Assembly (NCBI GenBank): GCA_002256025.1
Contig: NKIB01013551.1
Span: 1 to 55,650 of the forward strand
Length of the DNA stretch: 55,650 nucleotides
Source of the DNA: Asterionella formosa
Taxonomy: Eukaryota
Reading direction: 5' to 3'
A program made the position numbers and the translations under genes. Positions 8,107 through 50,709 of this stretch are shown here, one piece after another; position 1 is the stretch's first letter; each line of letters starts with the position of its first letter. The notes beneath the pieces are model-generated. The model saw nothing but the letters and a program-made list of their open reading frames with translations, searched no databases and had not been told where the DNA came from.

Positions 8107-10222
8107 ATGAACCCTCATGGCTCTATTGTCGACGGATTGGAAGAAGGGAATTTCCAGTGAGTTAGTTTGGACTCTTTTGTTGATTGAATCATTGCCAGAC
8201 ATGAATTGTAAAACACTTGCTATATATATGTATATATATATATATATTCATGGTCGACTGGCCATTCACACTCTCAACTAATATACATGTCAAACACTCG
8301 CAGGAAAATCAATTTCGCTTCGCTGTATTTGACCACCATTCCAGAGGACGCCAACTCGTCCTCTGGAGCTGCTGTTGGGTCAAGTATCTGCGCGACGACG
8401 ACAAAGCCACGATCACAACTGTTGCAAGAAACAATACCAATAACAAAAAAGCAAAATGGATCGACCACCTCCAGTGTTCTCGGTCACATGGGGGGCCTCG
8501 TGGATGACACAGCCGACCCTGATGAAAACAATGACGAAGAGGTGATGGGTAGCTTTCGACGAACGATACCTTGGAAAATTTTCATGGTACTAGGAGTTTT
8601 AGTTATTGTGGTTGGAGTCGGTGTGTTCTTCATTGTCAAGTGTGTGGGAAACAACAACAACAGCTGCAGAAATACTAATAGTCCCACGCCTAGTGATTAT
8701 AAACAATTGCCGTCCTCCGCACCCTCAATATTCCCAACATTTGCGCCAGCCTTTAACGATACCGCATCTTGGCAAGAATCATTAGAACAGCTATTTTTCT
8801 CCATATCAGGAAACGACATTTACTCTCCGGAGACTCCTCAAGGAAAAGCAACACTATGGTTTAAATACAATGATACCACTATTACGGATTATAACACCAA
8901 CGACGAACTCGTTCAACGATATGCTCTGTGCGTGCTATTCTTTGCATTGAACTCGGAACCAGATGGGGATATTGATGAATGCAAATGGGAAGGAATACAA
9001 TGTAGAAATCATGGCACTGTTTTTGGCATACACAGGACTGGAAACGCATTGAACGGATCGATACCAAGCGAACTCAGGTACCTGAGGAACCTTACCTCGT
9101 TGTACCTTTACAATAACTCCTTTACGGGACAGCTACCTGAATCATTATGGTCACTCACCGCTCTCACTCAGTTGAACTTTTTCAATAACTCCTTTACGGG
9201 ACAGTTACCAGAATCATTATGGTTACTCACTGCTCTCACTCAGTTGGACCTTGCGGACAATGCATTCAATGGAACCATCTCAAAAAGCATCATGAAGCTT
9301 TCCAATTTACAAAGTTTGTTTTTGAATGGCAACAATCTAATTGGGTCCTTGCCAACAGAGATTGGGGATTATTTGAACAGTCTAATCAACTTTTCAGTTG
9401 AAAGCAACAATTTGACTGGGCAGATACCAGAAAATATTTGGTTGCTGAAGTCACTCGTTGAGATGCACTTTTCACAAAATACATTCAGAGGGACGTTGTC
9501 GCCGTTCATTTGGTCCAGGCCCAACCTCACTTATTTGGCTGCTAGTGAAAATGCATTGACTGGGTCGATACCAGCCATTCCTGATGACAATACTACAGTT
9601 TCTCCCCTGATAAAATTTCATATTTATTCCAATCATTTGACTGGCAAGCTCCCTGACGCTCTGAGTCTACTAAGTGACAGCTTACGTGAGTATTGTTTGG
9701 ATAATTTTTTCGCTGTCATGTATTGGCATTGCACGCGCACTCACCTGGATTGTTTTGGGGTTTTACACCCATCTTGTAGAAGAAATCGTTTTTTTTCGAA
9801 ATAATTTTACAGGCACCATTCCATCCACTTTCTCCCAATTGACACAATTAACATATCTGGACCTTAGTTCCAACCGCTTAATGGGGACAATTCCTGTGCT
9901 TGCAGATTCTGTTATGAAAATGTATTTGACACAGAATAATCTAACTGGTCCGTTGCCTGCGTCCTTACCTGCATCATCCGAGGAAGTTTGGCTATCATCT
10001 AACGCACTGACTGGAACCATTCCAAGTAATTTTGGAGTGGGGTTGGCGAATCTGATGGAGGTCGCAATCAATGGCACCAGATTGAATGGACAGATACCAA
10101 GGGCACTTTGCTACCAAGTGGATCTTACTGCTAACTTGAGCCACCCATTATTTATTGCGGCTGACTGTTTTGGCAACAATTCAAACCATGTGTTTTGCGA
10201 CTGCTGCAAGGAGTGTTACTAA
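8107..10222 (+). CDS. Type II membrane leucine-rich-repeat protein (receptor-like, no kinase), 3 exons (8107-8156, 8304-9685, 9780-10222)
   Basis: One TM (IFMVLGVLVIVVGVGVFFIV), P/S/T stalk, QRYAL..F and ECKWEGIQC cap, plant-type LxxLxLxxNxLTGxIP repeats, terminal ADC...CDCCKEC; introns GTGAGT..CAG (8157-8303) and GTGAGT..TAG (9686-9779) both restore frame. Confidence 0.88.
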
Positions 10223-10494
10223 TGAATCATATGTTCCAAGAAGTCAAACCAAGGAAGTCGTGTGCTGAACAATGCCCTTGGACTGTTTAGGGCTATTGAA
10301 TAAATCGGATTTTGTGTGTTGGAAAGCAGACGAAGGATCGTTGCGAATATGCACACCGGTAGACTTCTCCAGTCCAATTGATAAAAACAATACACTTAAG
10401 CAACATTATTAAAAGGCTGATAGTACTTTAATCCAACCATGAGCTACACCAAATACCTAAATGTCAACACACCATATTCACCCACAGGATCTAT

Positions 10495-13400
10495 CTAGCG
10501 AGGATCCATGCCGCTTTGGATGTACTGAAAGATAGCTCCAAACCGATCGGCAGCAAATACAGTATCGAATCTGTATTTATGAAGAAATTCTCTTGCGACA
10601 TATTCCCAAGTCTCGCGATCCTGAACTTGCTTGGCATCTATGTCATTGATCGGAAGAGACAAGATTTTGAACATAACTTCTATTTCGTCCCGGAAGCTCT
10701 CGCAAATATAGGGCCCTAAATTGGGATCCAAATTGTATCGGACGACATACTCAATTATAAAGAAAAACGTTGTTGCCCCAATAGCACCACTTACGGCACC
10801 GAGAGCAGTCCAATAAGGAATGTTTTCGTTCACACTAAGCGAATCCCCAAATTGCTGTTCAGCGACAGCCCAAGGGAGGGCAATTGCTGCTGCCAAGGCA
10901 GCAAGGATGCGTAGAACGGTGAGAAAAATTTGTGTCCACGTGATTCCCCGGACACGACGAATGTTTTCAGCACTATCACTCGAAGTAGAACTCCTGGCCT
11001 TCTGACCAAGTGTTGCTTGCAAGCTTACTAAGATCTTCGTCTTCTTAATCAAATGAAACACAGCCAATGATGCGCCGTATGCCGAGGCAACGGTAGCCCA
11101 GAAGGCAACAGTAGTTAGCACACTAATAGAAAAGATACGAGCAATAGTAAAGATAACGGAGGCAAAAAAGACCAAAAAGCCCGCCATGAATGTAAGACTA
11201 GCAGTGTCGCTTTCCCGGGTGGCCCAGTACAAACCCTCAAGGTCTCGAATTTCCCGTGAAAGTACAGTAGATCCGTGCAAACCAGAAAGGTGACGTGTTT
11301 GTTTGACGATTCCCAAAGTTTCGATAGAAATTGGGGCCGTTCGTCTTGTTACAGTGCGACTGGATATGCACAAGAGACTATAAAAGTAAATCAAGCTGGC
11401 GGAAATATCCCATTGCCATAGTTTGCGCTGTTTGATAAACCCCCATCGAGTAGGGCCACGCTGCAGGGTGCTTTCCAAATAAACTCGGAAACGACGGAGG
11501 CGGCGAAAAAGGGCCAAAGACTCAGCAGAGCCAACGTTACGATCAACAGCGGTGGTAAGAAGATAGTGCATCTCGTCAGCACTTTTGTAGATTTTCACCA
11601 GGTAATCCCGTGTATGCGAGCTTTCTTGGTAGATGTCGGCAATGAATTTCTGGGTCAACTTTTTCTGGAAAGCGCGGATAGCCTTAGGATTATTGATGTC
11701 GTTCTTCAATTCTGCAAAGGCCTCGTTAAACTCCTTTGCTTCTGGATAACTGTAGTAGTCGGCATTTTTCAAGAAAATATCTACCTGTTTAGTGAAGTCT
11801 TCCACAAAAGGATTCTCTTCCACAGGAATTGAAACCCTGGACTCATGGCTCATGACACTGAATACTCCTTTCAATATCTTCTGCATCTCTTCATCTTGGA
11901 AAATGATTCGCGCTTCTTCATTGCGGATTTTGTATCGAGAAACGTTGGTCATTGTACCGAATGAGATTAATATGTTCAACGCTGCAATTAAAGCACCGAA
12001 TATATTTCCAGTGGAGGATCCGACCAGCGTAAACGCAAGGGAACCAGACGAGAAGGCAGCTGACGAAGTCAAAACGCTTGAGAAGTTTTGTGCCTCAACA
12101 GCAAATTCGTCGATGATGGAATCGACAGGCTTGGGCTGATTGTATAACTCACATGAAACACGATCATTCACAAGATAGGCCTTTGCGGCAAACTCGATGA
12201 TTTGGTTGCACACCAAGTCCATGTGTCTCGCAATAAAGATGTATTTTTCGTCCACCGCTGATCGAGTCTTTTCGTCGATTGCTAAACCGTCAACAAATTC
12301 ATCCCAAAATGAGTTAAAATCAGATGACATTCGCTGCTTTTGCATACCCTCGTAACGGGATTTTAAAACGGCAACCAAATCATTAGTTCCTATTTCCTTG
12401 TCACCATTGACTTCCTTGATCAGTTTCTGGAAGACAGCTTCATGAAGCTTAGCATATAGAGCTTCGATGAAGTCCTCGTTGAGCTCCATTCCACGAGGCA
12501 CAAGCGAGGAAGCCATCTTGACTGTCCAGTCACGAGACAAGATGTTATTCATGTCCTGCTGGCTTTCACGATGCTCTATGATTTTTGCATGTATGTAATC
12601 CAATCCGTGGCTGTACAGAAATCCAGGACGAAGGAAACCTTCTTCGCCGAAGTTTGAACCACAACCACGTAGGACAACCTCGCCATTATTCCAGTTGGTC
12701 TCAAAACAGTATAACCTGAAGCGATCAATGAATGGAACTCCAATAATTGCTTGCCTGATAAAGTTGTTGAACAACATGGAATTGATGCAAGCTCCAGTGA
12801 GACCAGAATACCGCATGAAATGAGGAGTAGCTTGCTCATCGCCGATGAAGGCGAAAACGTAGCCTTTAACGGCATCATTGAGGCGCATAGTGCGGAAGTT
12901 AATATAGTGTGCGACTGGGAAAGTAGCCATTGAAACTTTCGATTCTGCATTGCCGTCAGGACCTCGAGTTAAATTACCCTCTCGTTTGACCTTAGTTGCC
13001 TTACTCATCTTAGTGATGTAACCCTCCACATTGCGGGCTACCACCTGAGACCCCTTGACTAAAATTTCATACTTTTCCTTGGGACGGTCACTTAAACGAA
13101 AACTCTCGCCTACAGGCAGACTTCCAAGTTTGACATCAGTATAGGAGTTGATCAAAAATAGTTGAGGTACGCGTTTTCGCGCACCAGGGCTATAAACGTC
13201 ACCGAAACGGATCGTTTCTAAACAGGCCTCGTACCACAATCGATCAATATGATGATTCAGTACTCCCTTGAATCTGGATACATTATTCTTGATGGTTTCA
13301 TCTTTATCCTTCAAAGCGAGCGGAGCAACAAGTTCATCGCAGAGGGCAAGTTTCCAACGATCATACTCTCGAGTAAATTCCATTCCAAGGTAATAGTTGT

Positions 13401-16400
13401 CACCAGTCTCAAAGAAACGAGTCTGAAGGGACTGACGGCGGAAAGTGTCAGCACGATCAGCAAGGTCTTTGACAGCTGCCTGGATCTTGGGTACAATCGG
13501 GTCAATTTTATTCAAATCAGGAAACATAGATTCAGAAACCAGTGTATTGAAATGAGTTTGCCAGTTGGTATCTTTATTGTTTGTCATCAAATCATACATA
13601 CGAGCTGCGATTGGAGCTGATTTGACCATTTTCGTGAAATCTCCTACGATGCGAGTGTTCTGGTCATTCGTAGAACGGAAATCGTCCAACAAGCCACGCC
13701 CCCAACGCGTTTCTCCAAAGTTGTGCATTCCCATGGACACTTTGAGTCCTTGAATGCAGCAGACACCATAAGGTTCATAGGTAGTCACTCGGAAATGGAC
13801 ATCGGAATGGGCAGGCTTTCCGGTTGCTTGGACTACATGCGTATGCCCAACATCAATGGTAAACCTTTCGGACTTGATAACATTCATGAGCAGTTCATCT
13901 CGGACGTAACCCCCATCGCGACCCTTCACAACACTCTCTACGATAACTTTCGTTATACCAGCATGACGAGTGACCCCCTTAGGATACACGGAAGGTAAAT
14001 TGGCTGCAGTCGCCTTCAAGTTCTCTCGTCCTTCTTCAAGGGCCTTGAAGGTGTAGAGTTTACTGTCAAGATCAACTCCAGTAAGCATGAATGGCAAAAC
14101 TGCTTGTTCAAGGCGAATGTAGATTCCATACTCCACTCCAATCCGAAGTTCATCAATGCTGAGAGCCTGCGTGTACACAAGGTCCACTACCTTCCATGAA
14201 TGGTACTTATTGACACGAATACCGTTCTCGTCGACACGGCGAAGGATACTATCGTCGATTTTCAAATGCTCTCCAAACTTGGTTAACGAGTTCGAAACGG
14301 GGTCGTACTTGGACTGGGAATCAGTGTGAACCTGGATCAATCCTTTTGCCCACATTTTGGACATCTCCACATGAAGCATGTTTTCAAGGTCTTTGATGGT
14401 AATCTCGACGAATCCTTGGCTTGGCAAGATATTTCCAAGCTGGGAAGCGGTCTCTCCTGAAGCTGGAATATACACATCTTCGTATCCGGTACCCAAGTGG
14501 TAACGGAGTGTTCCAATCCAACGAGAATCCAATCGAACAATCTGCGCGCGCTCGAAGGTGGAAGCTCCACGAGAAAAAGCATCACGTGCCTCGTAAAGCT
14601 TCATCACACCACCAGTTATCAAGACGTTCTCGCAACAAAGAATGACAGTAATCAAACCAGTGGGACCTCCACCAATAACAATCATTGATTGAGGGGGGAA
14701 CTTGACAATCTTGGTTCGAGCCAAAGTCGACCATTCTGGGTCAGCTGCCGAATATTCCTTCTCACACACAAAAGGATCATAGCTCTTCAATTTGGAGTCG
14801 TATGTGTAGTATGTCTTCCCAACTTCCAAGTCATTGATCGACACCTGTGCCTGATTTGAACGTTGTATCTCAGCAAGAACATTCAAACGCGCATTATCTA
14901 ATTCTTCACAATGGACCTGTGATAATACCACGAGTCGGCGAAGCGGTACACGCAAATACGTAAACTCCATGAATCCTGCGTAGGCGAACTTCTTGAGATG
15001 ATCCAATTCAATGGTCATGAACGCTTTTTGAGCTCGAGTAATAGCCTCCGCAACAGGAACGTAGGCACGAAGCTTGACAGAGCCATCCGTAAGCGAGATG
15101 AATTTTTCGTATTTTGTATCGACATGGATAAACCGATGCTGGTCTTGGCCTGTCACCTTCGCATCATAAATATATGCATCCATCTTGTCCCCTTGTTCGA
15201 CCCAATACCATTCGTCGTGTTCAACATCGGTGACGATATCGCCTTGCGACAATTCACGAAGGGCTTCATTAAGAATTTCACGACGGAGCTCCCTCTGAAG
15301 GAGCGTCTTCGCGCGTCCCAACAAGAGTTGGGCTGGCTTGCAGCTTCCCAATCCATTCTTGACCAACTCCATGAGAGTTCGCTTGTCGCGAGGAGTAATC
15401 AATGTAAGGGCAGAGCGAATGCGACGTTCATTTACTTCTCCTGTACTCAAACCACGAATGTGATTCAAAATACTGTTTTTGAGGGCTTTGTCGTTCGGGA
15501 TCTTCCAACTCACTTGAGTAATTAAATCATGTCCAAGGCGGATACCTATTTCGACAGATGTGATAATCTCGTAGATTTGTTTTCCTTCCTCTTCCATCAT
15601 TTCACAAGAGATGTGAATGGCATCCAGCCAACTCATAAATGGGTCAATGAGCGATGCTACACCACCACAGACTGGAATGACAATATTATCCTTCAATTCT
15701 CTCACAAGGTACTTTGCCGTGTCGGCTGTCCAGGATGGCTTCAATTCTTGGAGCTTGTAAATCATCGGAGCCAGAACCTTTGAATCCCATCTGTTCCGGC
15801 CACGGAAGTTCATGAGAGTCAAGAGAACGATGGGCATATGAAAGCGTAGAGTCTCGAAGGGGTTGAGGAGTTCCTCGCGCTGATGAGCAAAGTTGCCAGA
15901 AAATTGAAAAATCATATTATGCCAATGTTTCGACAAACGCCGGAGTTGGTGCACAATACCGTTATTCAGCATGGTTGCCTGCGGCTGTCCAATAAACGTA
16001 CGAACAATACTCTCGTCTTGAGGGAGACGATGAGCAATACGGAACTCATTGGTCTTGCGACGTCCAATGTAATTTCCGTATTGGTTTCTGTTTGCAAGTT
16101 CAAAGCCACTCGCTTCGGCTGCCAAGTTTTGAGCAATGTTCTTGGGGTTGTCAGTGAGCAATCCCTGGCGGCCTTGGGTAAAGACCCTGGTCAACCAATT
16201 TCCTTGCCCCAAAATGATTCGAAACATGGACGCCAGGGCGTGGTTTCGCGTTGACAAAAAATTTTCAGATGGTGGAAAGGCAGTGATGCCGACAATTGGC
16301 AGGCGTCCCCATGCATCAAAAAGTCTATTCCACTTGATTTGAGTGGATAGATGCCATAGAAAATCGTAACGTGGTTGAATGAGTCTGACCATGATGCGAC

Positions 16401-17352
16401 TCACGTTTCGGTTCTCAAAGGCGATAGTCAGGACATACTTGATGTCTTTCGTTCTGCCAGTGTCCATGACTTCAATCAATTGATCGAGGATGTAAGCTTC
16501 GTAGCCAGTTGCGAATGGTAAGAACGTCTGTAGAGGTCGTGAAAAGCGGAGGGAGTTAACCTCATCATAAGACCACAGCATGAATCTCTTGAGGATACCT
16601 CGCCAGGCTCCGCCAAAGATCCCGATTTCACTATTGACAGTAAAATCTCGAACGTCGCCAGAATTAATTTTGTCTAGCAAGGACTGCCCGCGCTCTTCGA
16701 AAAAAGCGGCATCTTCCTTCGCGCTCGGGGCATTCGCTCTTGCAGAGACAACCAAAGCTCCATCTTGTCCAAGTTCTTGAAAGCGCTTATTTGGCAGAAA
16801 CCTCTGGTCGCTGACCAGAATGGACTTTCCATTTTCAATGTCCAAAAGTCGCTTGGGGGAAAAGGATACGCCGCGACTGTCTTGATTGAATGAGGTGCGA
16901 TTCCCATGGTTGTGCTGGGCTACAGGCACCACCGATAGACGAACCGTCTTCTTGCCTTGAATGATCGATGCTCCCCGGGAGTGCAACAACGCCGAGGGAG
17001 CTCTGTGTCCGGGGGCTGGACGTGTAGATGGAATGCGTGATGAGAAATTGCGGGGAGGTGGTCCATGACCACCCGGTAGAGGTGCATCGGCCGAAATGGA
17101 TGGGACGGATGGGATGTTGGGCGGAGCCTGGGGCACTTGCGTGGAGAGGACTCTGACAGGGGGCGAGAGGGAAATTCCAGACCCAGTTTCCTGCTGAGGG
17201 CGGGAGGCTCCGGAACCTCTGACTTGTTCGGCGTAGCTTCCCTTTCTGTTTGCGGAGCTAAACGAGGTTGGCACGGGAAAAGCGTCTTCGCCTTCTTCGT
17301 CTATGGCAGCCCTGTCTTCTTCGTCGAGACCTGACGGGTGACGTCGCAACAT
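10495..17352 (-). CDS. Large (~2285 aa) uncharacterised protein with FAD-dependent monooxygenase-like motifs and multiple C-terminal transmembrane helices
   Basis: Uninterrupted 6.9-kb ORF; Rossmann MIVIGGGPTGL...KLYEAR, FERAQIVRLD, second FAD motif FIGDEQATPHFMRYSGLTGA; about 6 hydrophobic segments in the last ~550 aa; first ATG at 17352 (an upstream exon is not excluded). Confidence 0.8.
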   Translation of the reverse strand: MLRRHPSGLDEEDRAAIDEEGEDAFPVPTSFSSANRKGSYAEQVRGSGASRPQQETGSGISLSPPVRVLSTQVPQAPPNIPSVPSISADAPLPGGHGPPPRNFSSRIPSTRPAPGHRAPSALLHSRGASIIQGKKTVRLSVVPVAQHNHGNRTSFNQDSRGVSFSPKRLLDIENGKSILVSDQRFLPNKRFQELGQDGALVVSARANAPSAKEDAAFFEERGQSLLDKINSGDVRDFTVNSEIGIFGGAWRGILKRFMLWSYDEVNSLRFSRPLQTFLPFATGYEAYILDQLIEVMDTGRTKDIKYVLTIAFENRNVSRIMVRLIQPRYDFLWHLSTQIKWNRLFDAWGRLPIVGITAFPPSENFLSTRNHALASMFRIILGQGNWLTRVFTQGRQGLLTDNPKNIAQNLAAEASGFELANRNQYGNYIGRRKTNEFRIAHRLPQDESIVRTFIGQPQATMLNNGIVHQLRRLSKHWHNMIFQFSGNFAHQREELLNPFETLRFHMPIVLLTLMNFRGRNRWDSKVLAPMIYKLQELKPSWTADTAKYLVRELKDNIVIPVCGGVASLIDPFMSWLDAIHISCEMMEEEGKQIYEIITSVEIGIRLGHDLITQVSWKIPNDKALKNSILNHIRGLSTGEVNERRIRSALTLITPRDKRTLMELVKNGLGSCKPAQLLLGRAKTLLQRELRREILNEALRELSQGDIVTDVEHDEWYWVEQGDKMDAYIYDAKVTGQDQHRFIHVDTKYEKFISLTDGSVKLRAYVPVAEAITRAQKAFMTIELDHLKKFAYAGFMEFTYLRVPLRRLVVLSQVHCEELDNARLNVLAEIQRSNQAQVSINDLEVGKTYYTYDSKLKSYDPFVCEKEYSAADPEWSTLARTKIVKFPPQSMIVIGGGPTGLITVILCCENVLITGGVMKLYEARDAFSRGASTFERAQIVRLDSRWIGTLRYHLGTGYEDVYIPASGETASQLGNILPSQGFVEITIKDLENMLHVEMSKMWAKGLIQVHTDSQSKYDPVSNSLTKFGEHLKIDDSILRRVDENGIRVNKYHSWKVVDLVYTQALSIDELRIGVEYGIYIRLEQAVLPFMLTGVDLDSKLYTFKALEEGRENLKATAANLPSVYPKGVTRHAGITKVIVESVVKGRDGGYVRDELLMNVIKSERFTIDVGHTHVVQATGKPAHSDVHFRVTTYEPYGVCCIQGLKVSMGMHNFGETRWGRGLLDDFRSTNDQNTRIVGDFTKMVKSAPIAARMYDLMTNNKDTNWQTHFNTLVSESMFPDLNKIDPIVPKIQAAVKDLADRADTFRRQSLQTRFFETGDNYYLGMEFTREYDRWKLALCDELVAPLALKDKDETIKNNVSRFKGVLNHHIDRLWYEACLETIRFGDVYSPGARKRVPQLFLINSYTDVKLGSLPVGESFRLSDRPKEKYEILVKGSQVVARNVEGYITKMSKATKVKREGNLTRGPDGNAESKVSMATFPVAHYINFRTMRLNDAVKGYVFAFIGDEQATPHFMRYSGLTGACINSMLFNNFIRQAIIGVPFIDRFRLYCFETNWNNGEVVLRGCGSNFGEEGFLRPGFLYSHGLDYIHAKIIEHRESQQDMNNILSRDWTVKMASSLVPRGMELNEDFIEALYAKLHEAVFQKLIKEVNGDKEIGTNDLVAVLKSRYEGMQKQRMSSDFNSFWDEFVDGLAIDEKTRSAVDEKYIFIARHMDLVCNQIIEFAAKAYLVNDRVSCELYNQPKPVDSIIDEFAVEAQNFSSVLTSSAAFSSGSLAFTLVGSSTGNIFGALIAALNILISFGTMTNVSRYKIRNEEARIIFQDEEMQKILKGVFSVMSHESRVSIPVEENPFVEDFTKQVDIFLKNADYYSYPEAKEFNEAFAELKNDINNPKAIRAFQKKLTQKFIADIYQESSHTRDYLVKIYKSADEMHYLLTTAVDRNVGSAESLALFRRLRRFRVYLESTLQRGPTRWGFIKQRKLWQWDISASLIYFYSLLCISSRTVTRRTAPISIETLGIVKQTRHLSGLHGSTVLSREIRDLEGLYWATRESDTASLTFMAGFLVFFASVIFTIARIFSISVLTTVAFWATVASAYGASLAVFHLIKKTKILVSLQATLGQKARSSTSSDSAENIRRVRGITWTQIFLTVLRILAALAAAIALPWAVAEQQFGDSLSVNENIPYWTALGAVSGAIGATTFFFIIEYVVRYNLDPNLGPYICESFRDEIEVMFKILSLPINDIDAKQVQDRETWEYVAREFLHKYRFDTVFAADRFGAIFQYIQSGMDPR

Positions 17353-18658
17353 GGCTACGGTCGGCTGCACTTGCTTGTTTGTTGTCTGGAAAGCTAGTGA
17401 AATGGGTTAGAATTCTGCAGTGACTTCACAATAGAAGCCGTAGAATTGCGACGAGTTTGAATCAGTCAGTGTGGCGTGTTTTGGAATCGAGCGTGCCTAT
17501 CCGTGCATTCCTAGCAGGGCCATCAGTGAGAGCCCTTCCATTCAGAGCCCTTCCAATCAGAGCGCTTCCATTCATGCGTCGCCGAGTCCTGGTAGAAGCG
17601 AAGCGGAAGCGCCACAATTCAATCGAGAGAAATACCACTTTCGTCATCGTACCTTACTCTCAGTTCGCTCTCAAGAAGGTCGAGACAGCGGACTGAACTG
17701 AAAAAGAAAATATGAGTCAGTTGGCCTTGTTGCCTTGCTAGTCATACATGCAATTGTTCGGGGAGCAAATCATGCGTTCTTTCATTCCCCAGCAGGAAAC
17801 ATCAAGACTCGAAATCTTTCATCAAATTAATTAGCTCCTATCTTTGAAGTACATGTGTGCAATCATGGCCATATTCTATGATTCACCATAGTTAGGATCG
17901 AGAAGGACAAGCGTCACTATTACAAATAATTATATTCAGCTATGTATAAATATATTTTGAAGCGAAAGTAGCACAGGCACCCTCCCTCCAAGATTGAGAG
18001 CCATTCACCAACGCGAACTTTGACATGACACACAGTAGCAAAATAAAAGATACCTCAAGCACTTTTCTATCTCATAGCTAATTAAAATTTTGGATGAAAT
18101 ATATGATATACGGTACCAGCTACTGACTAAATCAATTGTTGACATGTCTATACTGTTTATTCAAAATAATCCAAGACATGATTTCATACATACTGGTATA
18201 CCGGTACCAGGTACAGACGTTGCTGCAATGCTCACTACGACCGGTATTAGAAGCATCAATAATGTGTAACTGGTCCAAACCCCACATTCAGAGCTGGTAC
18301 TGTAAGACGAGGGTTTTTTGGCTCGAACATTTTACTTACGAGGTACCGGCATTCCAAGTACTGGTACTACAGCTCGGCTTTCGTCCTCGACGTACCATAC
18401 ATACCACAGGTACAGAAATTGGTGTTGACTCCGTCTCTTAACATACAGATAAACTTCTCCATCAGGCGCGATGCTTTGAGATCTACCTGCTATACTGAAC
18501 ACAAAATTCTCAACATCGTGTCATCTCCCAGAATAGCCGATCTTTGCTTCCCCGTCGACTCCTAGCTCCGACTTGCACGTTAGAATGTCCCTCCGTTCCT
18601 CTTCCATTATTCCAATACACGCCAAGTGCAAGAAGAGCAGCACTTTTGCACTTTCATC

Positions 18659-21008
18659 ATGTCAGTAGTAGCAACAACGACGACACTGCACGATCTTCCC
18701 GATCATGTCGAGACTTTCAACGCAAAAGATGACGTTTCGTGCATCACGACCAATACCCTGCAGACGTTGGATACGACGGTTGTCAAGCGCTTGGGTTTGA
18801 GTGAGATTTTTCGTCCAAAAGTTAAGGCTGACGAAGCACTTCATGACAGCGGCGATCATGTTGGAGGTAGCGAGGACCACGAGGACGATCGCGACGACGA
18901 CGAAGAAGAAGATGAGTCACTCATACAAGGCTTGACAAGAAATTCAGGAGCCGAAGTTTTTGATGATGACCTTGCCGTTGTCGAGAAGAATGGACCAAGT
19001 TTGTTTCGAACTAAGGGGTTACCCATGGTCAAGCAAGTGGATTCCTATTTAAACTCGCAAGACTCGACCAGTTTACCGATTTCAGCGTGTGATGACAAGG
19101 CAACACCTTCCCCGGAAAAATTCAGTAGACAAAAGAGATTGTTTTCAAACAAGCTGCCGACCATGTTTTCTTTTGAAACGCAGGAGGACGCAAGGCAGAA
19201 GCATGACGAAGATAGCAATATGTTTTCTGTGTCCCTTGATAGATTTGCTACTGATGACTCCAGTGGCAATCTCAAGTCAACGGATCACGAAGAAGGAAAT
19301 GAATCTCGTAAAATTATCCGTCTTCCAAACGGATTTTTCATCTTGATTTCAGGTGTATTGGTTTTCTTAGTTATCTTTCTCGCTGTATTCTTTGCGAGGA
19401 GAAACACTTCCGGGAGTGTTGCTACCGACGAGAGAGTTGAGCCGATGTGGGTAACGCCATCAAGGAGTCCTTTCACTCAGCCAGTCCGTACTTCGCCTTC
19501 TAAAAGGCCCACAGTTATTCCTACTGTTCCTATTGTTGTTAAAACGACTCTGCCGTCAATGGGATCTCCCATATCATTGACACGATTTCCAACAACGACG
19601 TTTCCATCCAAGCGGCCAAATAGCAAGAATCCTACAATTTTTTCTCAAACGTCGACACCCAGCCGAGTGACGGCTACACCATCTACTTCGCCATTCACCT
19701 CGCAGCCGACCATTCCAATGGACTTTTACGATTTGATTGTAATGCAGTCTCCAGAGTCAGTTACTCCATTGTCTGACCCGAACTCTCCACAATCAGTGGC
19801 CTTTGCGTTGCTCGAGATAAAACGTGACGTTGAAGCTTTTGGTCTATTGACTCTTTTTTTAATGACAAATAAGACAGGATGGACTAATACATGGGATTTA
19901 ACACTGTTGGATAAATGTGCATGGTATGGTGTTGATTGTTCGCCAGATGGACATGTTAGTGGATTGTTTCTTAGCTTTAATGGCCTCAACGGTAGATTGC
20001 CTGACGAGATTTCTCTCCTGACACATCTCAGAGGTTTGTCGCTAGCAGGCTCTGCTGAAATCAGAAAGGTGCAGGGGAATCTTGAGGGTACAATTCCTGC
20101 TAGTTGGGGTCGAACATTGACTAACTTGCGTAAGTCATGCTCATCGTGATTGTAAAGAATGTACGCTTTTTGCTTCCTGCCTAAATTATCATGATCATTT
20201 ATAGGCGCCCTCGAACTTTATGACAACAAATTGACTGGAAGTATCCCAACATCTTTTTCCAAGATGACTCTACTTGAGACGCTGAACTTATCTGGCAATA
20301 AATTGTCAGGATCACTTCGGGGTCAAATTGATAATCTGGGTTCCTTGAGCAATTTGGATCTATCATCAAACAATTTTGTTGGTGATTTGCCAGCAGAACT
20401 TGGAAATCTGAGCAATCTAAAATATTTGTCGTTGGCTGATAATGCTCTTTTTGGATCAATACCAACATATTTCAACCATCTAATTGATCTTGAAGAACTA
20501 TATTTGTCAAACAATAATTTGGATGGCGATATTGGGGCTGTTTCAAGTATGAGAAAGCTCGAATGGATTGCCCTCCATGATAATCAGTTTACAGGAGGTT
20601 TGGCTTCTTTTTTATTACTTACAAAATTGATTGGAATTCAACTTCACAACAATCGAATGGAAGAAGTGTTGCCTCCAAATTGGGGTAACCTGAAAATGTT
20701 ACGATTTCTTGATCTTGCTAGTAATGATTTCTTTGGAACAATCGCCGAATCAGTTGTTTCATTGCATCAACTCGGTAAGGTCCAGACATCATTTTGTTAC
20801 TACTGAAATTGTCATCTCTTTTCTTCATGAATCTGATACATGCTATATTTCTTCGCCACTCACTTCCACAGTCCACCTTTCCCTCGACCACAACCACCTT
20901 TCTGGTCAAGTCCCAAGTGGAATTTGCGACTTGCCTGGTTTGCTTCGCCTTTCCGCCGACTGTGGTTCGGATGTGCAATGCAACTGCTGTACCGAGTGTC
21001 ATGTTTAG
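18659..21008 (+). CDS. Type II membrane LRR protein, 3 exons (18659-20129, 20205-20774, 20872-21008)
   Basis: Acidic disordered N-terminus, TM FFILISGVLVFLVIFLAVFF, P/T/S stalk, CAWYGVDC cap, LRRs, terminal ADC..VQCNCCTEC; introns GTAAGT..TAG (20130-20204) and GTAAGG..CAG (20775-20871) restore frame. Confidence 0.88.
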
Positions 21009-29133: not shown

Positions 29134-32100
29134 ATGAAGATTCATTCTCGTCAGTGTGAAGGTAAGGAGGAAAAGCTGAAAGGAGAAGTGGGAAGAGTTC
29201 TTGCGAGGTTCCAAGCTCACGATATGTTCCCATCCACAGACGAGGCGCATGCCGTCACGGATGAATGTAACCTTGAAACGCCGTGCTTGCTCCTTGATAT
29301 CCATTCTCCGTTATCGAGGCGTAGCAAATTGGTTAAAGTTCGCCGTTCCTTGTCGATTGCATTCTTTGTCGTTACTCAGCTACTGTTACTGTTGAAAGTG
29401 GAATCCGCCAAGAATCCAGAAATTTCGCACCCCGAGGAAACCTTCAAAACCCGAACACAGCCTATTGCGTCCCCCGCCGTGATCCGAAAACAAAAATGGG
29501 CATTTATTGAGAGCGACAGAATCGGTGAGCAGAAGGATGGAGTCGAAGATGTTGTTGAAAGAAGTATGGCCAAGGACACTGTGTGTGAAGATCTCCCTCC
29601 AAGCCCGTTTCAATACGAAGTCTCTGCAACGCTCACTGGGCACCCAGATCTTGTATCAACAGATCAGCTGAGCGAACTTGAGCTTCTGTTTATGGAAAGC
29701 TACAACTCTTTTAGTTCAGAAGATTGTGGAAATGGAACCTTCCGCGTCCTTACCTCTGTTGTTTCTGTATGGAATGAAACAGATTTAAGAGATGGTTTCC
29801 TGAACAGGAACGGAAGTGCGGTATCATTTGGACTCCGTTTTCTTATCCAAGGTCTTTGCTCAGGATGCGGAGGCGACATGAGGCTTTTCGCAGATGACAA
29901 TGCCGAGAGAGGGCTGAAGATTCATAGAGTCAAAGGTAGCAAGAGTGTTGATAACAACATGGACGATGAGAGTAAAACTAAAAAAAAGAAGGGCAAGAAC
30001 AAAAGGGGAAATGGAAAGACCCAGAAAAGAAGCAAGAAGAGTAGTAAGAAGGGAAAAAACAAAGGAAATGGGAAATCTACTGGCACGAGTGTGAAGACAT
30101 ATTCTCCTTCACCCTCAATCACTCCTTCCGAAATTGACATGCATCCATGCTATACGTGCTTGCCTCCGTCAGGCTTTACATCAAGATTCAACTCATTTGT
30201 TCGATCCTCGTTTGTCATTTCATTTGTTGACAGGGTCGATTATGTGGTGGTTCTGAAATCAGAATCAGTAGCATGCAACAGAAAAGATGAATTTGAATCA
30301 TTCCTGGTCATCAACTTTGTTGGCAATCCCAGCAAGGCCACACCATCACAAATCACTGTTGTAGAGCAGGGAATTGTTGATACCTTCAACAATCTAAACT
30401 CACTCAATAATGCAACTTGTGATTTATTGTTTCGCAGGCTCACGGATGCTTTGGCTATCGAAGTTGACATCAGCAGCGGTTATAAGGGTCGATCATTGAA
30501 GAGAGTACATAGTATCGTCACTCGTGCTCTTACACGAAAGCCTACACAGAGTAGTGGCTCATTCAGTTATCGGTTCAGGGTAACTGGCAGTTGTCAAGGG
30601 TGCAATAGGAATTCCACTTTGTTTCATGATACTGTTCGTCGGAGCCTCTCACTCTCCTCTTTCGGTATTTACAACTCACATGGTCGACGTGTTCAATTGG
30701 GTGCAGCAAATGATTGCTATTGTCCAGTCTTGTCGGAAAATCGTGCTCCAACAATTGATGAATTTGAGACATCTTTCAAGATGAATATCCAGAGCCTAGT
30801 GGAAGGTGGATTGTTGAATTCTAACTTTATTGCTGATGTTGTAACTAACAAAACATTCGAAGTAGAACCGGAGATGTGTCCTGCTCCTGTAGATTTTGAA
30901 TCATTCCTGGATGTTGGCTTTGTTGGAGATCCCAGCCAAGCTACACCGTCACAAATTTCGGTGTTGGAGCAAGAAATTGTTAACTCCTTTAACACACTGA
31001 ACTCTCGTAACAATGAAACTTGCGATTTGTTGTTTCGCAGGCTCACGGATGCTTTGGCCATCAAGGGTAACATCAGCAACGGTTCTAATCGTCGATCATT
31101 GCAGACAGTACAGATTGTTGTCACTCGCGCCCCTACTCGAAAGCCTACACAGCGCGGTAGCTCATTCAGCTATCGTTTTAGGATCAGTGGCACATGTCGA
31201 GGCTGCAGCAGTAATTCCAGGTTGTTTGATGATGCTGTACGTCGCCAGCTCTTGCTACTACCCACCTCTGATAGCACTAGCAACACACATGATCGGGGTT
31301 TGCAAGTGACTGGCGGCAATGATTGCTATTGTCCAGTCCTGTCGGAAAATCGTGCTCCAACAATTGATGAGTTTGAGACATCTTTTATGATGAATATCCA
31401 GAGCCTAGTGGACGGTGGATTGTTGAATTCTAATTTTATTTCTGGTGTTGTAACTAGCAACACATTCGAAGTAGAACCGGAGATGTGTCCTGCTCCTGTA
31501 GATTTTGAATCATTCCTGGATATTGGCTTTGTTGGAGATCCCAGCCAAGCTACACCGTCACAAATTTCGGTGTTGGAGCAGGAAGTGGTTGACACCTTTA
31601 ATACGCTGAACTCTCGTAACAATGAAACTTGTGATTTATTGTTTCGCAGGCTCACGGATGCTTTGGCCATCAAGGGTAACATCAGCAACGGTTCTAATCG
31701 TCGATCATTGCAGACAGTACAGATTGTTGTCACTCGCGCCCCTACTCGAAAGCCTACACAGCGCGGTAGCTCATTCAGCTATCGTTTTAGGATCAGTGGC
31801 ACATGTCGAGGCTGCAGCAGTAATTCCAGGTTGTTTGATGATGCTGTACGTCGCCAGCTCTTGCTGCTACACACCTATGATAGCACTAGCAACACACATG
31901 ATCGGGGTTTGCAAGTGACTGGCGGCAATGATTGCTATTGTCCAGTCCTGTCGGAAAATCGTGCTCCAACAATTGATGAATTTTCAGATTTGTTTCAGAT
32001 TATGATTCAAAGGTTGGCAGAAGATGGTGTACTGGATCCACTATTTATTTCGGGATTTACAGGAGAAATAAGTGAAGTTTTAACATCATTTGCTCCCTTA

Positions 32101-35100
32101 GCAACTCCTTCGTTGTCCAATACATCTCCCCCTACTGCAACCGAGATTCCCTCGATCTCTGGATCTGGGATTACCCCAACTACATTACCATTTGTACCAT
32201 CCCCAGTTTTCAGGTCTTCAGCTCCAACTCAGACTGAGGCACCCAATTCGGCAACCACCATGCCGTCAAGTTCAGGGGGAAGTGTTGTTCCTACAATATC
32301 ATCCACTTCTGCAAACACAGACTCTCCAACCACAACAACAACTTCTGAGCTCACTCTGGGACCTGTAGGTGTGCCAACAGGGGCCTTAATCAACAATACA
32401 TTGGTGCCCATCCAGGAAACTTCAACTCCATCACCATCACCTTCATCTTCACCATTATCGGTAGCAACACTGTTACCAACAGTTGTTGCAAGAAGAGATG
32501 TTTCAAGTAACTTCTTTGATTTATCACTATCGCTAATTGGCATTTCCTCATTGAGTCCAATTGAAGTGCATCTATTCACAAACTATACCAGGGGATATTT
32601 GAATGCAGCTTTTGAATCAGAATATCAAAATCCACCAATGTTATTAGCTGTAAATGTCACATCTCTGTCCTCTCAGAATACAAATCAGTCGGTTCGTTTT
32701 CTAGCTGAAGCCTCTATAAACAAAATCACTTTGACAATTCGAATTCTCACAGAACAAATTGGACCAAATCCTTTGAGTGCTGCAGAACAGTTGAATCGCT
32801 CCAAAATGTATTTATTGGATCCAGCATATTTACTTGGTCTTTCCATGATTCCTGGCTTTAGCTCAATTCTTGAAATCTCAATTGGTCAAACTTCTATTCC
32901 AACTAGTAATCCAGTCATCAATGTGACTACAGGACCTACTGCAACCCCATTAGAAAGCCCAATTACATCTCCAATGATCATTATCCCGCAAACATCTGTT
33001 CCTTCAAATTCATTTGTTGCTCCATCATCTATCCCCACATTGGCGGCTACAACTCCATCACCAACAATAGCCTCACCAGAAACTGCTGTGCCAACTGATA
33101 CTCCAAGCATCTTCATAACAGCAGGACCTACTGCTACCCCATCAGGAAGCCCTATCATCATCCCGCAAACATCTGCTCCTTCAAATTCATTTGTTGCTCC
33201 ATCATCTATCCCCACATTGGTGGCTACAACTCCATCACCAACAATAGCCTCACCAGAAGCTGCTGTGCCAACTGATACTCCAAGCATCTTAATAACAGCA
33301 GGACCTACTGCTACCCCATCAGGAAGCCCTATCATCATCCCGCAAACATCTGCTCCTTCAAATTCATTTGTTGCTCCATCATCTATCCCCACATTGGTGG
33401 CTACAACTCCATCACCAACAATAGCCTCACCAGAAGCTGCTGTGCCAACTGATACTCCAAGCATCTTAATAACAGCAGGACCTACTGCTACCCCATCAGG
33501 AAGCCCTATCATCATCCCGCAAACATCTGCTCCTTCAAATTCATTTGTTGCTCCATCATCTATCCCCACGTTGGTGGCTACAACTCCATCACCAACAATA
33601 GCCTCACCAGAAACTGCTGTGCCAATAGATACTCCAAGCATCTTTATTACAGCAGGACCTACTGCTACCCCATCAAGAAGCCCAATCCAGTTCCCTGTTC
33701 CAAGTGAAGGACCAAGCAATTCAGACCCTCCCACCTATGGTCCAAGCATCTCAGCCATTCCCAGCAACAATCCAAGTGCATCTATCATTCCCAGTGAGGT
33801 TCCAAGCACTTCACTTGTTCCCAGCATAAAACCAAGCATGTCCCCTCTTCCAAGTGAAGAACCAAGCAATTCATACTCTCCCAGTGATGGTTCAAGCATA
33901 TCCCATGTGCCCAGCAACATTCCAAGTGTATCCATGATTCCCAGTTACAATCCAAGAAATTCATTCCAATTTGATCCAGAAATGATCCCAACTAATACAT
34001 CTGTTTCAATCGCAATTTCAGTAGATGTAAGTTCACTTCCAAGGGTCAAATTTGGTAACCTTAATGGTTTTGCCATCTACCGCTGTGATCCTACTACCGG
34101 AATTCCTTTCAGCTCAGCAGTAGTGAGATTAGCTGATTCTGGTTCAGGAACTGGAGCTGACCAATTTCCTGGGGATTTTATATTTTCTGCAGCTCTTGCT
34201 CTTGTGTCAAGTGTGCCTGATGAGGTGTTTGCATTCCAAGCTGTACCTGTATTCAATGATACGGAGGATAGATTTGGGTTAGGGCGTCATTTGGTCATGA
34301 CCAAGTTGAATGCAGTGACATCTTACCAAGGTAATGGAACAATTGTCATGGATGGTGGCGGTAATTTTACTCTTGAGACATTGTCTGGAGTATCTCTTAT
34401 AATCACCTATTCCTGGCCAGCAGACATCCCTGACTTAGATACTGGAACTGAATTTCTGGGATCAACTGTGGGATATGACTGTGGCTATGTGTCAAGGTAC
34501 TTCAATTTTTCTGGTGACAACACAGACTTAGGAGGATCTGAAACAGTGATAGTATTACTTGGAAAGTTTTATGATGAAACCAATTATACAAGAGGCACTG
34601 AGAATATTATAAACCTGAATGCAGGATGGTACACAGGAAAAAATGGCACTGGACCTGCACTAGTATCAATATATGTTGAACAGAATGATGCCAGCAATGA
34701 CAAAATTTGGAGGAGCACTACATTAACTACAGCTATCAATCCAGGTTACCAAAATTCCTGTGCCAGTACAAAAGTTGCAACAGTGACAGTTGTTGATGAT
34801 GGCCAAAATGTTACATTCATCCTTACCCCATATAATTCTCCTAATATTCCAAGCATCACACCAAGCACATCTCCTATTCCAAATGAAGGACCAAGCAACT
34901 CTGACTCTCCCAGCAATGTTCCAAGTATTTCACATGTTCCCAGCAACAATCCAAGTGCATCTTACATTCCCAGTGACATTACAAGCATTTCACATGTTCC
35001 CAGCAACAATCCAAGCATGTCCTCTGTTCCAAGTGAAGGACCTAGCAATTCATACTCTCCCAGTGAGTTTCCAAGCACTTCACTTGTTCCCAGTATAAAA

Positions 35101-36434: not shown

Positions 36435-36690
36435 ATGAAAGAGGGGTCAAGGGAGACTGACAGGGGATGAGGAAAACTGACGAGGGAACAGAGAGAGTGA
36501 CAGGGAAGAGGGAGAGTGACAGGGGACAAGTGAGACTGACAGGAGATGAGGGAGACAGACAGGAGATGAGGAAAACTGACAGGGGAAAAGGGAGACAGAT
36601 AGGGGAAGAGGGAGACTGACAGGGGACAAGGGAGACTGACAATGTCAATGAATAAGGAGAGAAGGGAAAGGGTGAGTCTGAAAACTGACA
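36435..36690. repeat. Purine-rich minisatellite (GGGAGACTGACAGGGGA-like units)
   Basis: Repeated GAGACTGACAGG / GGAAAACTGAC units. Confidence 0.8.
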
Positions 36691-49036: not shown

Positions 49037-50709
49037 ATGTCATCAAACCCATATTTCACCAACATGGCACACATGGATTCATGTGACCATCGCCCACATA
49101 ACATTGTACAATGTCTAGATGCTAATGGTGAGGTAGAACCAGAGAAATACTTCCAGTATCTTCAGTTTTTGTCTGATTTCGGAAGAACTCTACTCATGCC
49201 CACTCCAGAAATACAAGGTCTTAACAATGTGCCTCTACCCCCAAGAGTTAGAGTGAGAGGAAAGAACAAGTCTGTGAATACATCAATGACGAAGGGATAA
49301 TTCAAATGATAACTCCTGTGATGTCAAACTGGTATATACAATACATTTCCAGACCAGCAGTTGAATCATTGTCATTTCAAAAGAAATTCCGCCGCAGATT
49401 TCGACTACCACACAACCAGTTCCTCCAATTTGTTGTTGATGCTAGAGATTCAAATTGGTTTCCTCGCTGGACTCGACCTGATGCAACAGGAAGGGCATCA
49501 TCACCCCTTGAACTTATCGTTTTAGGAGCATTCAGGTACCTTGGGAAAGGATGGACTTTTGATGACATTGAGGAGAATACTGGTATCAGTCAAGAGACCC
49601 ACAGGCAATTCTTCCACGCCTTTATTGAAGTTGGAAGTACCATCCTTTACAAAAAATATGTTAGAACTCCAACAAACCCATTGGAAGCAGAGCATCACAT
49701 GTTTGAAATGACACAGGCAGGTTTCCCTGGATGTCTTGGGTCCACAGATGCTACACATGTGACAATAGAGCAATGCTTCAATCGGCTTCGGAACCAGCAT
49801 ATATAATCAAAACTTCCTTGTACAGCCAGGACTTATAATGCTACTATGAGTCATAGCCAGAGGATCCTGTCTAGTACCACGGAACATCCTTGTCGATGGA
49901 ATGATAAAACAGTAATCAACTTTGATAATTTTGCTCGAGGCATCCAGAATGGTGCAGATGCCTTAAAAGATGTGGAGTTTGAGCTTAAAGAAAAAGATCG
50001 GAATGGAGCAGTTGTCTCCATAAAGTATAGTGGATGCTTTTTGATAGTTGACAATGGATATCTAAAATGGTCTACGACAGTGCCTCCAACCAAAAACCCA
50101 GAAACTGAACAAGAACTTAGATGGTCTGAATGGCTGGAGTCACTTAGAAAAGATGTGGAATGTACCTTTGGAATAATCAAGGGACACTGGCAGATTTTAA
50201 AATCAGGCATCCGAATACATGGAGTAACAGAACCTGACAAGGTCTGGCAAACATGTTGTGCATTTCATAACAAGTTACTTTATATTGATGGCTTAGACCT
50301 GCAATGGCAAAATGGTGTTTTAAGTGACTGGGAAGGACCATTAGGCCAATTAAATGGATCTGAAGCACCTTTTGCTATTCAAAGGCTAAATGCAGTTGGA
50401 AGACTGGCAGTACTTGGATCAGCCAGTTTGCGAACAATTGATACCTCTGGAATGGGTCCTGGTAATGATGGTGATGGACAAATTCCTGATGCAATTCGCA
50501 ATTTAGTGCCGGATCCAAATGACAACTTCAATATTGAAGTGCTAACAAAGAATGTTGATACAGTTCTAGCAGTCCGGCATTTAAGTTTACAGATTTTCAA
50601 GAGTAAACTCATTGAACATTTTGATATTTTATGCAAACAAAACAAGATTGTTTGGCCATCACGTTGTAATGTAAATGATCATCCCAAAACCTTAAAATTA
50701 TCTGTTTAG
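49037..50709 (+). pseudogene. Harbinger (DDE_Tnp_4/Plant_tran-like) transposase with a frameshift near 49270 and an in-frame TAA at 49804
   Basis: FRRRFRLP, GFPGCLGSTDATH, WNDK, LIVDNGY, LESLRKDVECTFGIIK.WQIL, C..FHN. Confidence 0.9.

Follow-up and report, generated by a model that had tools for sequence, protein, structure and literature searches.

The 55,650-nucleotide contig NKIB01013551.1 of the freshwater diatom Asterionella formosa (assembly GCA_002256025.1; the whole of this stretch is referred to below as the window) carries, at 10495..17352 on its reverse strand, a nuclear, single-coding-exon gene that is expressed and that encodes a protein of 2,285 amino acids. We regard it as likely that this protein is a flavin adenine dinucleotide (FAD)-binding oxidoreductase that is tethered to a membrane and faces the cytosol. 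Sequence comparison places it in a conserved, unstudied family of algal proteins of about 2,100-2,700 residues. Its catalytic fold is known; undescribed are the branch of that fold to which it belongs, the insertions within it, the N-terminal domain and the membrane-anchored architecture. Residues are numbered here as in P0001, the 2,291-residue translation of an open reading frame (ORF) of 2,291 codons that spans 10495..17370 (reverse strand) and opens with the GTG at 17370; translation actually begins at M7.

The central assignment comes from the middle of the protein, where three features were located:

12421..14703, reverse strand: group A flavoprotein monooxygenase (PHBH/MICAL-type) fold with insertions of several hundred residues, residues 890-1650 (AlphaFold2, Foldseek and VIA-align)
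14656..14673, reverse strand: GxGxxG dinucleotide-binding motif GGGPTG, G900-G905 (in a modelled beta-alpha-beta unit ending at E927)
12790..12843, reverse strand: GD motif and family signature GDEQATPHFMRYSGLTGA, G1510-A1527 (P1516-A1527 identical in the window protein and six of six compact relatives)

An AlphaFold2 model of residues 860-1660, built with 36 aligned sequences, has a mean predicted local distance difference test (pLDDT) score of 82.7 and a predicted template modelling (pTM) score of 0.79. Searched against the PDB with Foldseek, the model returns 191 matches at an expectation value (E) <=0.001. Ranks 1-7 and 9-10, that is nine of the top ten rows, are MICAL1/3 monooxygenase domains (E 2.9e-8 for 6ici, rising to 1e-6), and these are followed by flavin halogenases, PhqK, kynurenine 3-monooxygenase (KMO; E about 1e-5) and other group A enzymes. 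When the top 997 Foldseek chains were aligned with VIA-align, 485 of the 997 gave Z>=8, the best reaching Z 16-17.2 with root-mean-square deviations (rmsd) of 3.4-4.8 Å over 300-344 of 801 residues. The Z-scores of the best partners (HspB, CmlS, VioD, OxyS, StyA, PHBH, RebH, MICAL and UbiH) differ by no more than one unit. These matches to PHBH-like enzymes therefore identify the fold of residues 890-1650 as that of a group A flavoprotein monooxygenase, the predicted model having the overall two-domain arrangement of PHBH. A first-pass annotation, made from the sequence alone, had proposed a flavin-monooxygenase-like, membrane-anchored redox enzyme or sensor and named the lack of a FAD-binding fold in a structural model as the result that would count against it; the model of residues 860-1660 contains that fold.

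The same annotation could find no named family for the protein, and profile searches bear this out: the whole protein has a single Pfam match, at E 0.12, with no hit to PF01494 (FAD_binding_3) at E<=1, and no NCBIfam match. Several family members give sub-threshold Pfam matches to DAO and NAD_binding_8/9 at the GxGxxG site. As the PF01494 cut-off is not reached, we place the protein in the structural superfamily rather than in the Pfam family.

Each of the FAD fingerprint motifs picked out in the first-pass annotation was recovered, with GGGPTG at 900, LYEAR at 925, FERAQIVRLD at 939, IKDLE at 992 and IGDEQATPHF at 1509. Strand beta1 (895-900), a helix (902-918) and strand beta2 (923-926), with E927 lying just after it, form a classical dinucleotide-binding unit around GGGPTG, and G1510-D1511 follows a modelled strand (1504-1508) and precedes a helix (1523-1542). 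In this class of enzyme the GD motif contacts the flavin ribityl chain and a further element, the DG motif, serves as a dual FAD/NAD(P)H fingerprint. Amongst the family rows that are complete at the relevant sites (60 of 72), GxGxxG is retained in 57/60, the acidic residue in 58/60 and GD in 58/60; all three fingerprints are intact in 55/60, including the window protein. The five exceptions are P0052, P0053 (Pseudo-nitzschia), P0055, P0058 and P0063, the first four of which cluster together on long branches within the Bacillariaceae clade.

The first and last FAD motifs had been described as some 600 residues apart, wider than in typical enzymes of this type, and G900 and G1510 are indeed separated by 610 residues, as against some 340-400 for the compact relatives from bacteria. 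Light is shed on this spacing by a small set of compact relatives. When prokaryotes were scanned, each species being represented by one genome, seven loci were identified, six in Endozoicomonas and one in an uncultured bacterium, and at three of these (L002, L004 and L005) an ORF of 904-934 residues has a C-terminal half that is a compact copy of the flavin module. At the compact loci, GxGxxG lies about 350-430 residues ahead of the signature HFMRYSGLTGA. An unnamed 1,345-residue protein, P0345, likewise combines a compact flavin module with a Pro-rich N-terminal part. Sixty-three residues are identical between the window protein and six compact relatives (five bacterial loci and P0345), including RxQxVRL, GF.EI, GK, YGV, Q.R.FE, Y.GME and PHFMRYSGLTGA, and in the same alignment blocks of at least 10 residues found only in the window protein total 197 residues. 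Within the algal family itself, the most divergent member, P0072, is without the beta-rich block at about 1047-1177. The compact relatives and the gap in P0072 therefore indicate that the wide motif spacing reflects lineage-specific insertions in a distinct and previously unnamed branch of the fold.

On PF01494, for which the cut-off is 22 bits, the compact copies reach 17.6-21.6 (20.0-21.6 for the three bacterial ORFs scanned), and a profile built from them has 8aq8 as its best PDB match (E 5e-4). The same profile aligns to MICAL3 at E 0.078 over 65 residues, the longest among the alignments shown and one that extends past the Rossmann unit. A search seeded with P0072 returned the family together with only P0345 and P0346, the latter aligning over 8% of the query.

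The flavin module is thus not unique to the giant architecture. The Endozoicomonas proteins (L002-L006, about 900-934 residues) and P0345 are the closest sequence relatives outside the family, and the differences between them and the window protein are plain: their modules comprise about 430-490 residues rather than the enlarged module seen here, their N-terminal halves are unrelated to that of the window protein, and no more than about 140 residues follow the signature in their ORFs, the algal C-terminal region being absent. The Endozoicomonas relatives are, moreover, bacterial and uncharacterised, whilst the window protein is eukaryotic. At L002 and L005 the compact gene sits between a gene for NAD-glutamate dehydrogenase and an opposite-strand ORF of 1,367-1,401 residues; at L005 the latter has no Pfam match and is followed by a dihydroorotate dehydrogenase gene. 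At L007 the open frame stops before the signature motif, and this copy may be broken.

The flavin domain is preceded by almost 900 residues that can be divided as follows:

16651..17352, reverse strand: Pro/Ser-rich, non-conserved N-terminal region, residues 7-240 (composition; low conservation and occupancy)
15250..16620, reverse strand: conserved all-alpha domain with no detectable known fold, residues 251-707 (AlphaFold2)
15055..15240 (residues 711-772), reverse strand: putative five-stranded beta barrel, Tudor/SH3-like, residues about 709-772 (VIA-align, Foldseek)
14716..15054, reverse strand: conserved helices and beta hairpin joining barrel to flavin domain, residues 773-885 (modelled secondary structure, conservation)

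The extreme N-terminus had been annotated as Pro-rich and disordered. The compositional part of this description holds: the first 200 residues include 24 prolines, and Pro, Ser, Gly, Gln, Asn and Thr together make up a fraction of 0.45-0.48. Column conservation across the family is 0.09-0.29 and residues 7-240 are probably disordered, though this second part is deduced from composition. The N-terminus has no signal-peptide-like hydrophobic stretch and, by eye only, no apparent plastid- or mitochondrion-type presequence. The unrecognised domain of about 550 residues that was said to come next is real, occupying about 250-885 and strongly conserved. An AlphaFold2 model of residues 230-885 (44 sequences) has a pLDDT of 85.9 and a pTM of 0.80. 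This model has no Foldseek match at E<=0.001 in either the PDB or BFVD, and VIA-align against 48,161 representative chains gives none at Z>=8, the best being 7.5 over 109 residues of acyl-CoA dehydrogenase; the ESM Atlas offered no usable match for residues 240-870. Residues 251-707 are a candidate new fold, not a proven one, the helical part having been modelled together with the barrel and linker. A profile of the N-terminal domain gave 312 matches amongst 1.84 billion representatives, and the best 150 of the 312 (E<=1.9e-28) are family members or fragments of them. The possibility that the 163 shorter matches include stand-alone N-terminal-domain proteins was considered; the one checked, P0079 (1,040 residues), is a full-length homologue cut at residue 1184.

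For the barrel, the best VIA-align match is to the RDM15 Tudor domain (7de9_A; Z 7.3, rmsd 1.9, 54 residues aligned), with the BirA C-terminal domain, PWWP, SMN Tudor and KOW at Z 6-7. Overall the barrel matches have Z 6.0-7.3 over 50-60 residues with rmsd 1.5-2.8, under the Z of 8 advised for VIA-align as clear, and Foldseek returns the SETDB1 Tudor domain with a probability of 0.96-0.98 but an E of 0.7-0.9. A Tudor/SH3-like identity for residues 711-772 is accordingly suggestive, not proven.

Beyond the flavin domain lies the part of the protein that is predicted to contact the membrane:

11938..12084, reverse strand: first hydrophobic hairpin (two predicted helices), residues 1763-1811 (own and family-averaged hydropathy)
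11212..11937, reverse strand: soluble, probably helical region, residues 1812-2053 (no hydrophobic segment)
11044..11211, reverse strand: second hydrophobic hairpin (two predicted helices), residues 2054-2109 (hydropathy)
10735..10935, reverse strand: predicted helices five and six (2146-2174 and 2182-2212), residues 2146-2212 (hydropathy)
10498..10734, reverse strand: highly conserved C-terminal tail, residues 2213-2291 (conservation 0.66 over the last 40 residues)

About six transmembrane helices and a C-terminal tail had been annotated here, and both descriptions stand, the former on hydropathy and the latter as a conserved segment covering residues 2213-2291. The protein's own hydropathy profile has stretches at about 1786-1811, 2055-2097, 2142-2171 and 2188-2210, and family averaging yields six predicted helices arranged as three hairpins. 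These are not contiguous, about 240 soluble residues separating the first hairpin from the other four helices. This intervening region (1812-2053) gives insignificant PDB profile matches, to helical proteins only; one of them, to apolipophorin-III (E 0.03), was treated as a chance match. Residues 1660-2291 had no usable match in the ESM Atlas.

The distribution of charged residues around the hairpins offers some guidance on topology. The turn of the first hairpin has no charged residue and its flank (1812-1835) has six Lys/Arg; the loop after the second hairpin (2110-2145) has seven Lys/Arg and two Asp/Glu; the loop between predicted helices five and six is acidic and has no Lys or Arg; and the flank at 2211-2235 has three Lys/Arg, with 0-1 in the turns inside the hydrophobic units. 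By the positive-inside rule, Lys/Arg-rich flanks stay cytosolic. As hairpins return the chain to the same side and their flanks are rich in Lys/Arg, all of the soluble parts should face the cytosol. A cytosolic C-terminus also fits with the structure of the Bigelowiella paralogues P0061 and P0218, in which the tail is followed by two WW domains (Pfam, E 1e-12).

How widely is this architecture distributed? A word-seeded search with residues 860-1660 identified 72 clusters of 1,279-2,702 residues with 31-100% identity; leaving aside the window's own protein, the closest is 79% identical. Named diatom members come from Nitzschia inconspicua (two copies), Seminavis robusta, a Bacillariaceae metagenome-assembled genome, Ditylum brightwellii (two), Pseudo-nitzschia multiseries, Cylindrotheca (two distant copies), Chaetoceros debilis and C. 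dichaeta, and named members outside the diatoms from the brown alga Ectocarpus fasciculatus and from Bigelowiella natans (two). One unnamed cluster, P0025 (2,267 residues), has 477 members. In a FastTree phylogeny of the flavin region (65 of the 72 rows, seven with <70% occupancy having been dropped; midpoint-rooted), the window protein groups with raphid pennate diatoms. An alignment of 35 full-length members is collinear, conservation setting in at about residue 250 and continuing to the C-terminus, and the N-terminal domain and C-terminal tail are as highly conserved as the flavin core.

Every name attached to a family member is 'hypothetical', 'uncharacterized', 'unnamed' or 'expressed unknown'. 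The existence of full-length characterised homologues had been named in the first-pass annotation as a second result that would count against it; 72 clusters of similar length were seen, and none of the names is that of a characterised protein. Literature searches combining MICAL, diatom or stramenopile and flavin monooxygenase, and using the locus tags IV203_003707 and Sro2155_g316860, returned nothing on the family, supplementary tables lying outside the search; the matching passages in one article that was returned (PMC12050087) are irrelevant to it.

What might such a protein do? In the scheme that we favour, the flavin domain would be held at the surface of an endomembrane or of the plasma membrane, facing the cytosol, where the enzyme would bind FAD, take electrons from NAD(P)H and activate O2. 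It might then operate in a MICAL-like mode, a protein partner being oxidised and/or hydrogen peroxide (H2O2) released locally, with the target recruited or gated by the N-terminal parts of the protein (helical domain, barrel and Pro-rich terminus). A macromolecular substrate, or signalling H2O2 as the product, is a tentative suggestion that we hold with somewhat less than even confidence. We lean weakly towards MICAL because it is first in the Foldseek ranking, because the accessory parts are interaction-like and because a large non-catalytic portion is conserved; the Pro-rich N-terminus (found also in P0345), the Tudor/SH3-like barrel and the WW domains of the Bigelowiella paralogue are all hints of an action directed at proteins. 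If the enzyme is active, the group A flavin monooxygenases would gain a new branch that is bound to membranes, and the enzyme would be a candidate for local redox signalling, or for an as yet undescribed oxygenation step, in algae.

MICALs are large multidomain cytosolic proteins with Pro-rich regions, in which they resemble the window protein with its predicted cytosolic orientation, and their NADPH oxidation is stimulated by F-actin; they oxidise actin methionines and so remodel actin in animals. As well as heading the Foldseek list, MICAL1/2/3 align over 334-344 residues in VIA-align, among the largest numbers obtained. The differences are considerable, however. Pfam finds no CH, LIM or bMERB domain in the window protein or in 20 relatives, identity in the structural alignment is 9-11%, the flavin region of the window protein is longer by about 450 residues, its N-terminal domain is different and it has membrane hairpins. 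On a bolder version of the proposal, photosynthetic protists (diatoms, brown algae and chlorarachniophytes) would have a functional analogue of MICAL that is tethered to a membrane and guided by a domain whose fold is entirely new. On that account cytoskeletal or trafficking proteins would be oxidised, or H2O2 emitted, at a specific membrane, and the compact modules of Endozoicomonas symbionts would perhaps act on host proteins. We think this unlikely; were it correct, redox control of the cytoskeleton or of membranes would extend beyond the opisthokonts, through a separate lineage of the monooxygenase fold.

Several observations weigh against the assignment of the protein as a cytosol-facing, membrane-tethered flavoenzyme of MICAL-like type. 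There is no significant sequence link to any solved flavoenzyme: the protein, its flavin region and two profiles, when searched against PDB sequences, matched only marginally and at the Rossmann motif, the best match of the family profile being afoD (E 0.04), and phmmer with the flavin region found nothing relevant. MICAL, at Z 16.0-16.4, is level with PHBH, VioD, HspB and the halogenases in VIA-align, and the preference for MICAL therefore stands on the Foldseek ranking alone. The Asp of the DG motif is apparently replaced: its likely equivalent is A-T-G1184-K-P, in which the Gly is conserved and the Asp absent, with (T/I)GKP in the family and GGK in the compact relatives (assigned by sequence order, not superposition). 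P0052, P0053, P0055 and P0058 no longer have GxGxxG and/or GD, or lack the acidic residue of beta2, while the rest of the protein is retained; they may be pseudoenzyme paralogues or orthologues, and the existence of such a Pseudo-nitzschia-type clade suggests that part of the function may not need flavin. Finally, it is equally conceivable that the hairpins are embedded in a monolayer or in a single leaflet.

The strongest alternative is a classical hydroxylase or epoxidase of small molecules or lipids, taking a hydrophobic metabolite (a quinone, sterol, carotenoid or aromatic compound) from the membrane. KMO, Coq6/UbiH and squalene monooxygenase are all enzymes with membrane-linked access to their substrate, and a membrane anchor would suit a lipophilic substrate here also. 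Nearly all of the structural neighbours (HspB, VioD, OxyS, PHBH, UbiH, KMO and PhqK; Z 15.7-17.2) act on small molecules, KMO being matched by Foldseek at the E of about 1e-5 given above. We consider this reading somewhat unlikely, though almost as probable as the MICAL-like mode: about 1,500 extra conserved residues, among them the interaction-type barrel, the Pro-rich N-terminus and the WW domains of the paralogue, are unusual for a metabolic enzyme, one clade keeps the protein after loss of the flavin motifs, and no presequence for plastid or mitochondrion is apparent by eye.

Two members of this group merit direct comparison. With PHBH and other group A enzymes the window protein shares the two-domain fold (Z 16-17.2 with HspB, VioD, OxyS, PHBH and UbiH), GxGxxG with an acidic residue after beta2, the GD motif and the lack of a separate NAD(P)H domain. 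It differs from them in having no PF01494 score, in that 300-344 of 801 residues superpose, in its 610-residue motif span, in the apparent replacement of the DG Asp and in that the domain is embedded in a 2,285-residue predicted membrane protein. KMO is held on the membrane by C-terminal helices with its catalytic domain in the cytosol, the same concept as that proposed here, and its fold matches; no sequence similarity was detected, however, the set of conserved residues differs, and the window protein is longer by about 1,500 residues and has six predicted helices, paired into three hairpins.

A second alternative is that the protein is mainly a scaffold or sensor, either reading redox or metabolic signals through the binding of FAD or NAD(P)H or being catalytically silent, in which case it would act via its N-terminal domain, tail and membrane part. 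The retention of all other domains by the four long-branch Bacillariaceae-clade members with degenerate GxGxxG, GD or beta2 acidic sites speaks for this, as does the conservation of the N-terminal domain and C-terminal tail at the level of the flavin core. Against it stand the window protein and the 55 of 60 complete rows that keep all three FAD fingerprints, together with the many core residues that are invariant from bacteria to diatoms, a pattern typical of an active site under selection, and we judge the idea decidedly unlikely. The motif-losing clade and the compact bacterial relatives provide natural controls for experimental work.

It is highly improbable that the protein is a flavin-dependent halogenase making halogenated metabolites: halogenases do rank high in Foldseek (Mpy16 at 8e-7, then CndH, CmlS, PltA and Bmp2) and in VIA-align (Z 17.0 for CmlS, 16.3-16.4 for RebH), but the fold match is no better than that to hydroxylases and WxWxIP, the signature of this class of enzyme, is absent from the whole protein in a regular-expression search.

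The chance that the gene is an artefact (a chance ORF, a fusion of adjacent gene models or bacterial contamination) is negligible, the sole point in its favour being the lack of a Pfam match, as against continuous RNA contigs with a spliced 5' untranslated region (UTR) intron, collinear homologues of 2,100-2,700 residues with all domains across several algal lineages, and a GT..AG intron in the adjacent gene. The features of the transcript are these:

10495..17352, reverse strand: complete coding sequence in a single exon (ATG at 17352, stop at 10495-10497; 2,285 codons and stop)
17394..17652, reverse strand: 5'-UTR intron of 259 nucleotides, GT..AG (joint 17393->17653 in RNA contigs)
17653..17685, reverse strand: 3' end of non-coding exon 1 (last full in-frame codon TAA)

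The reading frame is uninterrupted, and RNA contigs from four of the four runs examined (four studies) cover the coding sequence, extending over 10439-17393 with no credible internal joint. The 259-nucleotide intron is removed in contigs of three of the four runs (X1, X2 and X8); the remaining run, X4, is a polyA run without cover there. This spliced joint shows that the template was RNA rather than carried-over DNA. Exon 1 ends ...TAA-G, the G being read as one codon together with two bases from the start of exon 2, and as this TAA lies in frame directly before the exon junction the first ATG, at 17352, is the start, as had been annotated at the outset. P0203, a member of the same 90% cluster, is also 2,285 residues long. 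A putative intron at 10812->10864 was rejected: its ends are AT..GC, and it is seen in X8 alone, the other three runs reading through. The X1 contig extends past 17685 (reverse strand) by 26 letters that do not match the window and that could represent an upstream exon, an allele or a chimeric contig.

The stretch is present in 20 of the 22 runs listed, of which 19 are recorded as RNA (14 studies); apart from one polyA library, the RNA runs are metatranscriptomes of fresh water and lakes, and the contigs give no expression level. The DNA is eukaryotic nuclear DNA, from a diatom, with spliceosomal introns. A bacterial origin, suggested by neighbouring ORFs for leucine-rich repeat (LRR), Mur-ligase-type and PAP2 proteins, was rejected on the basis of the introns seen in RNA and of the organism-named homologues of similar length, all of which are eukaryotic. 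Diatoms and their relatives account for a large share of aquatic primary production, yet for many of the proteins conserved in them no function has been assigned. The window protein is notable for its very large size, its strong conservation and its wide transcription (RNA runs, 14 studies), and the redox-enzyme fold is the only part of it that can be recognised.

The giant gene has an LRR gene at 8287-10222 (forward strand) as its convergent neighbour. Its two overlapping ORFs, 8287-9804 and 9674-10222, are joined by removal of a 94-nucleotide GT..AG intron (9686-9779; RNA contigs, three runs), and one RNA contig (9968-11150) spans the 3' ends of both genes. On the other side, at 18626-20806 (forward strand), a 507-residue ORF with no Pfam match is followed by a 191-residue LRR ORF; together these may be an intron-split LRR gene, in which case LRR genes would flank the giant gene on both sides.

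A second giant ORF occupies 29134-36363 (forward strand) and encodes 2,409 residues with no Pfam match. Within it a unit of 177 bp recurs, in 4.0 copies of 97% identity (32977-33687), and degenerate repeats of 30-150 bp lie at 34876-35364; the GC skew over 32-34 kb is -0.34. The product is possibly a repetitive, mucin- or cell-surface-like protein. Just downstream, at 36450-36641, is a 20-bp tandem repeat of 9.6 copies. The right half of the window is ORF-poor and of lower GC content (0.35-0.40); within it, the ORF at 49846-50709 (forward strand) has DDE_Tnp_4 / Plant_tran domains characteristic of a Harbinger-type transposase.

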